DNA of 64,000 nucleotides from IMG/VR virus record IMGVR_UViG_3300033067_000616, positions 150 through 64,149 of that record; one strand, given 5' to 3'. The stretch is from a virus. Its lineage: Duplodnaviria; Caudoviricetes. Shown one piece after another: positions 3,467 to 6,611 of this stretch. Numbering within the stretch: position 1 is the stretch's first letter; every line of letters starts with the position of its first letter. Below the pieces are notes generated by a model. It was not told the DNA's origin. It was given only the letters and a program-made list of their open reading frames with translations, and did no database searches. A program made the position numbers and the translations under genes.

Positions 3467-3685
3467 CTACTTTTTTGGCAATCTAGAGAATGTTATGTTG
3501 CTTTTTACTCTTATATCTTTATGAGTAAACTGCCACATCTCCCCGCTTTCACTTAAAATGATAGTATAAATAGTATCAGTCTCATGACCATAGTCAGTAA
3601 CTAGCCAAATTGCACCGTCACCTCTTGGAGTGGTGACATCAATCCTGTTCGATGGTTCGAATATAGTAGGACTCATCCCTATCAA
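3467..3685 (-). CDS. Hypothetical protein
   Basis: 72-aa ORF, in operon between the transferase and GroEL. Confidence 0.55.
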   Translation of the reverse strand: MIGMSPTIFEPSNRIDVTTPRGDGAIWLVTDYGHETDTIYTIILSESGEMWQFTHKDIRVKSNITFSRLPKK

Positions 3686-5654: not shown

Positions 5655-5684
5655 TTGACAATTTAAAAACTTGCCTTATATTTG
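5655..5684 (+). promoter_or_regulatory. Major early promoter (host sigma70-type, Bacteroidota)
   Basis: TTGACA (5655-5660), 16 nt, TATATTTG (5677-5684), with an AT-rich UP-like region upstream. Confidence 0.75.
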
Positions 5685-5690
5685 TATCAA

Positions 5691-6090
5691 GCAAACGAGC
5701 TAACAACGACACTTCTTACTAGCAAGCCTTCAGGCGTTACGATGACGAATCAGTATACTAAAGGTGACCGAAACGATAAAGCCTTACTAAGCCCCTTTCG
5801 AGGACACGGCCGCGGTAAGTCGGTTCAAAGGTAGGTCCGCTACACTAGCTCTAAGCTCAGTTCTTTGACATACGATACTATTTGAGGCCATAAGCGGTGC
5901 TGAGGCCAATACGATAGCACAAAGCTAGGACGAACCTAGGGCATGCGATACATTACTCAGGTGGTCGCATGTCGGAACCACAGCTCAGGCTGTAGGGAAT
6001 AAAAGAGGTCTAGCAGTTTCACGTGGCTAGAAAACATTAGGTGCAGTTAGAATGACTAATTAATGAGAGCAATACTCACTGCACCACAAA
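5691..6090 (+). ncRNA. Long, highly structured 5' leader RNA of the early operon
   Basis: No ORF; many stems: gagcta/tagctc, gcct-tca-ggc, cct-ttcg-agg, gtgct/agcac, ctagg/cctag, gcatgcga/tcgcatgt, acagc/gctgt, ctagc/gctag, ggtgcagt/actgcacc. Confidence 0.5.
5859..5870 (+). promoter_or_regulatory. boxA-like antitermination site
   Basis: AGTTCTTTGACA resembles rrn/nut boxA (TGCTCTTTAACA) and follows a closed multibranch structure. Confidence 0.55.
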
Positions 6091-6110: not shown

Positions 6111-6221
6111 ATGGAAACTAGAGTAATTAGAATCGAAGGCCGTTATGAGATAATCGGCTTTTTTCAGGAAGGCGTACTAATCAAGACACGCAAATTATTA
6201 ATCCCATTCAGATACAGATGA
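6111..6221 (+). CDS. First early small protein (36 aa)
   Basis: METRVIRIEGRYEIIGFFQEGVLIKTRKLLIPFRYR; A-rich leader; ATGA overlap with the next ORF. Confidence 0.55.
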   Translation: METRVIRIEGRYEIIGFFQEGVLIKTRKLLIPFRYR

Positions 6222-6424
6222 CAACACTACAAACATTCAAAGCTATCATCAACGGGACGTTGGTGGTAGTTGACCAACTCAAAGGCAACAACGGACGTCA
6301 AGACATCCGCTACAAATTGCATCGCACACAATACACCAACAAAGGTGGTTATGTGGTTACTTATGATGAGGCCATCGTAAGTGCGGATGACTTTTGGAGA
6401 TTGCATCCACAGAAGGTTAACTGA
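6218..6424 (+). CDS. Early hypothetical protein
   Basis: 68-aa ORF; its stop TGA lies inside the hammerhead CUGAUGA core. Confidence 0.6.
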   Translation: MTTLQTFKAIINGTLVVVDQLKGNNGRQDIRYKLHRTQYTNKGGYVVTYDEAIVSADDFWRLHPQKVN

Positions 6425-6471
6425 TGAGCACTTCAATAGTCGAAACATGGGCTCCGGCCCATGTCTTAACC
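6415..6471 (+). ncRNA. Type I hammerhead ribozyme
   Basis: Stem I ggttaa/ttaacc; core CUGAUGA 6421-6427; stem II G-C plus act/agt; GAAA 6442-6445; stem III catggg/cccatg; GUC cleavage triplet 6463-6465. Confidence 0.88.
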
Positions 6472-6488
6472 AATTAAAACAAACAATC

Positions 6489-6611
6489 ATGAAAGCACTA
6501 ATCGTTATCGCAAAAGCCATCCAAATATGCATGGCAAGTTCAGTAGGCATTGCAATCGCATTCGCCTTGTACAAAGTAGCAACAGGTCAAACTTCAGGAA
6601 TGTCAATATGA
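6489..6611 (+). CDS. Small membrane peptide downstream of the hammerhead
   Basis: MKALIVIAKAIQICMASSVGIAIAFALYKVATGQTSGMSI; hydrophobic; A-rich leader. Confidence 0.55.
   Translation: MKALIVIAKAIQICMASSVGIAIAFALYKVATGQTSGMSI

Follow-up and report, generated by a model that had tools for sequence, protein, structure and literature searches.

The window analysed here is a stretch of 64,000 nucleotides, nearly the entire 64,149-bp IMG/VR virus record of an uncultured freshwater phage of 64 kb. Its early gene block is headed by a promoter-like site (Table 1), and every gene from position 6111 on lies on the + strand downstream of it. A non-coding leader of about 420 nt (5691-6090) extends from this site to the first ORF. 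The phage's genes are without Shine-Dalgarno sequences, and an A/T-rich stretch precedes most ORF starts (e.g. 6111, 6489, 15212 and 51553). The promoter-like site at 5655-5682 also holds TATATTTG, which would fit the TAnnTTTG -7 box of Bacteroidota. The occurrence of TATATTTG together with A/T-rich starts devoid of Shine-Dalgarno sequences may hint at a Bacteroidota-type host.

Two small genes of this block are separated by a hammerhead element. The upstream ORF of 68 codons is conserved as a protein, with a diversity of 0.124 at codon positions 1 and 2 versus 0.246 at position 3. The downstream gene encodes a hydrophobic peptide of 40 residues (…VGIAIAFALYKV…), which is highly conserved in the phage group and always found early in the + strand block. 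It is kept in nearly all relatives, with the ribozyme present or absent.

Table 1. Features of the ribozyme locus and of the divergent second copy. Coordinates are those of the window, or of the contig where one is named.
Feature	Coordinates	Strand	Remarks
Promoter-like site, TTGACA-16-TATATT, 11/12	5655..5682	+	Heads early gene block; consensus match alone
Upstream 68-aa ORF	6218..6424	+	UGA 6422-6424 in core; second in-frame UGA (U7-G8-A9) next
Stem I, 5' strand GGUUAA	6415..6420	+	Pairs with 6466-6471
Core C3-A9 (CUGAUGA)	6421..6427	+	Unchanged in 11/11 aligned relatives
Stem-loop II: G10.1-C11.1, bulged C6429, A-U, C-G, U-A, loop UCAAU	6428..6441	+	
Core G12 A13 A14	6442..6444	+	Invariant among aligned relatives
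Stem III hairpin: A15.1-U16.1 plus 7 bp, UCCG loop	6445..6464	+	
Predicted cleavage site C17 / U1.1	6465..6466	+	From hammerhead consensus
Stem I, 3' strand UUAACC	6466..6471	+	
A-rich spacer, 17 nt, without Shine-Dalgarno sequence	6472..6488	+	Precedes next start codon
Downstream gene, 40-aa hydrophobic peptide	6489..6611	+	
Second copy	L015:3561-3641; L016:3561-3641; L070:2012-2092		Found with lineage covariance model

The + strand reads GGUUAA/CUGAUGA/G-CACUUCAAUAGU-C/GAA/A-CAUGGGC-UCCG-GCCCAUG-U/C/UUAACC from 6415 to 6471. All the conserved core nucleotides of a hammerhead, C3 U4 G5 A6 N7 G8 A9 and G12 A13 A14, are present in this copy; the A15.1-U16.1 pair is formed by A6445 and U6464, and H17 (not G) is C6465. 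The original prediction had placed a type I hammerhead with a full core at 6415-6471; these coordinates are right, and the type I reading is supported by the core, the covariation and an independent model described below. Its 6-bp stem I is borne out by the pairing of GGUUAA with UUAACC, whereas the 6 bp attributed to stem III are in fact 8, seven plus A15.1-U16.1. Stem II had been described as closed by a G-C pair, which passes over the rest of the stem: taken in register, only the closing G and C pair with each other. Alignment with sibling ribozymes brings out four stem II pairs around a single bulged C, and C6429 is treated as an insertion in the covariance-model alignment. The stop codon of the upstream ORF does lie inside CUGAUGA, as had been noticed, its UGA (6422-6424) being U4-G5-A6. 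The geometry proposed for the site also holds: C17 is at 6465, and the predicted 3' product would start from U6466, with the AUG (6489) 23 nt further on. When the 57 nt are folded in isolation, the predicted structure of lowest energy has the core paired with loop II, at -19.5 versus -14.4 kcal/mol for the hammerhead secondary structure. Folding programs of this kind leave the hammerhead core unmodelled, and a minimum-energy fold that is not a hammerhead is usual for the class and not decisive.

The chance occurrence of such a motif was estimated with a loose descriptor that asked for 4 bp or more in each of stems I and III and for a single stem II pair. This site is its only match in the window, and 300 dinucleotide shuffles of the window gave 11 matches, or about 0.04 per window. 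When scaled to stems of 6 and 8 bp, which is our own extrapolation from the shuffles, the expectation falls to about 1e-4 per window. A rate of this order still counts when many windows are scanned, and it is the comparative evidence that decides. No other hammerhead copy was found within the window, either with the descriptor or with two covariance models; a 16.9-bit model match at 3632-3679 was discarded as a further copy, the core being absent.

The Rfam hammerhead covariance model had been put forward as a check of the prediction, and it did not give the expected result: there was no type I hit and nothing above the gathering threshold. At gathering, Rfam called nothing in the window or in nine related loci; in E-value mode over the whole window, the element was not listed; and profile searches of the window's own record with RF00163 and RF03152 returned no match. 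In a search of 201 nt, the best Rfam match of the window copy was the RAGATH-1 hammerhead RF03152, with 24 bits versus a cut-off of 56.3. Sibling ribozymes fare no better, since none was called at the gathering cut-offs in the 12 loci tested, and RF00163 gave one canonical sibling 25.5 bits versus a cut-off of 34 bits. As the siblings also fall below the Rfam cut-offs, the silence of Rfam is no evidence against the motif.

Relatives were gathered from viral and metagenome contigs with the 68-aa protein as the query, yielding about 60 loci. The element is found in 13 contigs besides the window, and these 14 contigs contain 12 distinct sequences. Across the 12 distinct copies, only 3 of the 45 columns that comprise the core, stem I, stem-loop II and the 3' flank vary, stem I being invariant within the lineage. 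The third codon positions of the adjacent ORF vary in 43 of 65 cases (Fisher, 9e-11 versus the columns of the ribozyme outside stem III). Stem III, in contrast to the core, occurs in three unrelated versions among the relatives, with six compensated pairs. The replacement stops exactly at the invariant A15.1-U16.1, and this pair and H17 are retained across all three versions. A core that stays fixed while stem III is swapped is the pattern expected of a hammerhead. When the window region was used as a DNA query against a phage collection, no match was obtained, and a search of viral contigs for the exact loop II pattern returned four known relatives and nothing else.

In the rest of the approximately 60 loci, the ribozyme is absent and the two genes abut or overlap. 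Compared with relatives in which the genes abut, the element is a discrete indel, the ends of which are those of stem I. In a phylogeny of the adjacent ORF, the ribozyme has a patchy distribution, and well-supported branches force at least three changes. Six contigs retain only GGTTAACTGATGAGCA; an insert of about 400-430 nt comes next, and then a decayed 3' remnant. Since some relatives are without the element and others have a disrupted copy, it is dispensable and not essential. At the disrupted loci (L003:419-850, also L018-L022 and L053), the ribozyme is reduced to its first 16 nt, and the non-coding insert is conserved, with at most five differences among five copies and an additional 34 nt in L003. 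The remnant after the insert reads AGTAGAAATAC...TGTAACC. The insert contains no long ORF on the + strand, no Rfam match and no tRNA detected by ARAGORN, and the insert of L003 had no match as a DNA query against the phage collection. A split hammerhead at these loci was considered and rejected, as the 3' remnant has A at 11.1 and G at H17, and stem III is absent.

A covariance model built from the window's lineage was used to seek further copies, and detected a divergent hammerhead in three contigs (L015, L016 and L070; Table 1). It consists of GAUUAG, CUGACGA, a 4-bp stem II with the loop UCAGU, a branched stem III, UC and CUAAUC. In comparison with the window copy, stem I has two compensatory pairs, the variable position 7 is C, and stem II is a clean helix of 4 bp. 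Alignment of the window with this second copy supports the register given above for stem II of the window, with C6429 bulged and UCAAU as the loop. The branched stem III is made of two hairpins, the second of which is compensated between L015 and L070. A different 68-aa ORF precedes the second copy, with its UAG inside stem I, and a homologue of the 40-aa peptide gene follows after 17 nt, a spacer that in L015 has AUUAAAAC in common with that of the window.

The stem-loop II pattern was also searched for in viral contigs, and more than 120 stretches were retrieved (loci L103-L219). Of the 128 matches listed, 126 show the stems of a type I hammerhead, the length of stem I is exactly 6 bp for 95 of the 98 distinct copies, and the commonest stem-loop II of the siblings is that of the window minus the extra C. 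In the same set, stem I is often GGUUAA/UUAACC, and several copies per contig are frequent. As judged from these sequences, the matches form a widespread phage subclass of predicted type I hammerheads, whose defining traits are 6 bp in stem I, 4 bp in stem II beneath a UCARU loop, and a stem III that varies. The window copy departs from the subclass by a single C that bulges out beside G10.1. Within the subclass, the constancy of the UCARU loop and of stem I length hints at a tertiary contact between stem I and loop II, of the kind on which fast cleavage at low Mg2+ depends. The genomic setting is also recurrent. Among the 98 members listed, the stop codon of the upstream ORF is usually inside or just before the ribozyme (as the core UGA in 12 members and within stem I in 23), 12-31 nt typically separate stem I from the following ATG, and the downstream genes are small. 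The window is typical of the subclass in all three respects.

A covariance model termed R2 was constructed from 22 copies of equal length from unrelated contigs, none of them from the window's lineage. In these copies, 99.1% of the cells are paired and compensation is seen at 11 of the 16 pairs, covarying pairs making up 5 of 6 in stem I and 2 of 4 in stem II; stems I and III were partly selected by the descriptor, while the inner stem II pairs were not. R2 gave the window copy a score of 52.5 bits (E 4.5e-13), the next-best hit reaching 13.6 bits.

In our view it is likely that the element is a genuine type I hammerhead of this widespread phage subclass, located between genes of the + strand early block and acting by the following mechanism. 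Once transcribed and free of ribosomes, the RNA would fold and cut itself between C6465 and U6466. The 5' piece, comprising the leader of about 420 nt and the ORFs of 36 and 68 codons, would have the stable stem III hairpin at its 3' end, terminated by a 2',3'-cyclic phosphate. The 3' piece would begin with a 5'-OH and an unstructured leader of 23 nt ahead of the gene for the 40-aa membrane peptide. Cleavage would thereby uncouple the stability or the translation of the two halves. The sequence, its conservation, the covariation and the subclass membership are observed, while the transcript carrying the ribozyme, its cleavage and any effect on expression are inferred. The window hammerhead is conserved and probably active; the bulged C next to G10.1-C11.1 could slow catalysis.

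It had been proposed that cleavage separates the leader and the first two genes from the rest of the early mRNA and that translation modulates folding. Both are plausible from the present analysis, and both repeat what has already been put forward in print for phage hammerheads (PMC3088659, PMC6765202). As a stop codon inside the core is common in the subclass, its presence here is no evidence of a switch. A bolder proposal, to which we give little credence, treats the hammerhead together with the A-rich AUUAAAAC leader and the gene of the 40-aa membrane peptide as a single expression cassette. Cleavage would then make the short unstructured 5'-OH leader needed for translation of the peptide in a host that dispenses with Shine-Dalgarno sequences, with the timing set by the ribosome that terminates on the core UGA. 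Such a cassette is suggested by the spacing of exactly 17 nt between each of two divergent ribozymes and its peptide gene, the two genes being homologous and their neighbourhoods different.

The element might instead be a crippled or very slow hammerhead which, because of its bulged C and with no clear tertiary contact, would be inactive at cellular Mg2+ and would be conserved as a structured spacer or hairpin, e.g. as a 3'-end protector or a ribosome-spacing element. The bulge is indeed rare in the subclass, relatives manage without the element, and an altered length of stem II can lower activity by orders of magnitude (Perreault et al., PMC3088659). This is nevertheless unlikely, given that the 13 core nucleotides are invariant despite the divergence of the neighbouring coding sequence, and that catalysis is their only known role. 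The bulge itself has changed from C to U in L039 while the rest of the element is intact, and among the 128 matches listed a bulge at the same place, beside G10.1-C11.1, is found in one other lineage (L129), in which the stem is compensated.

Ribosomes could also have a more direct role if those finishing at the core UGA decided folding and cutting, loop II (CUUCAAUAGU) being paired as a pseudoknot with the codons that close the upstream ORF (ACUUUUGGAG, 6390-6399), or else with the core. Positions 6390-6399 are complementary to 6431-6440 over 9-10 bp, and perfectly so in several relatives. In L005 the pairing amounts to -11.5 kcal/mol, with 5 of 1000 shuffled loops as good, and the minimum-energy fold of 6380-6490 includes it; a pseudoknot between stems I and II is present in about 40% of natural hammerheads (PMC3088659). 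In the window, however, 252 of 1000 shuffled loops pair as well, which places the match at chance level, and among relatives it is uncompensated and is broken twice in L029/L030. Loop II has the consensus of the subclass, also encountered in unrelated phages with other upstream genes, and thus has not evolved to fit the 68-aa ORF, while stops internal to the ribozyme are common in the subclass. Gating by translation through this pairing is therefore very improbable. That a hammerhead-like string arose by chance beside a conserved hairpin serving as a terminator or nuclease site can hardly be entertained. The rate of loose-descriptor matches in shuffles and the silence of Rfam speak for it, but it is effectively refuted by the invariance of the core across the swapped versions of stem III, the covariation in the subclass and the E-value obtained with the independent model. 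Stem III as a terminator was rejected, since no U-tract follows the hairpin and no terminator site is listed there.

With the locus read as a type I hammerhead of the phage subclass, the layout, in which a phage hammerhead lies between small genes, was already known, and the window copy illustrates it well without being exceptional. What phages gain from hammerheads between their genes has been asked since 2011, and the junction alone gives no answer. Two results go beyond routine: the Rfam cut-offs miss the subclass, and the same junction is found with, without and with a disrupted ribozyme in related phages. The related contigs display four states of the junction, namely a ribozyme with any of three versions of stem III, no ribozyme with genes that abut or overlap, a ribozyme destroyed by an insert of about 400-430 nt and, in distant relatives, a divergent second version. 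Because the same two genes occur in four states among close relatives, they offer an unusually clean natural comparison, which can be used to ask what effect cleavage has on the flanking genes. The finding of a widespread phage type I subclass below the Rfam cut-offs indicates that such ribozymes are probably under-annotated.

Among known families, RF00163 (Hammerhead_1, clan CL00010) has the same core as the window copy and the same topology, with stem I open and stems II and III capped. A canonical sibling aligns end to end with this model, and stem-loop II resembles the family consensus (GUCC-CAAAUA-GGAC against GAC-UUCAAUA-GUC). Unlike RF00163, the window copy carries a C that bulges out behind G10.1, and its stem III is longer. 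With RF03152 the window copy has the core and stem III in common; membership in RAGATH-1 was rejected on account of the low score and because the extra 5' hairpin (GGAUG...CAUCC) falls within coding sequence and is not preserved among the relatives. Perreault et al. 2011 (PMC3088659) demonstrated cleavage, both in vitro and in vivo, of gene-flanking hammerheads from prophages, and the role proposed for phage hammerheads is to cut long phage transcripts into gene-length mRNAs (PMC3088659). The splitting of a polycistronic phage transcript by self-cleavage into pieces with different fates is a published mechanism (PMC3088659, PMC6765202). Like these prophage and phage hammerheads, the window copy is intergenic and lies among small phage genes, and variants with a short or irregular stem II are documented for them (PMC3088659). 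The window differs from the arrays described there (PMC3088659) by its single copy, and a further difference is that among its close relatives the same junction occurs in three forms, carrying the ribozyme, lacking it, or holding a disrupted version.
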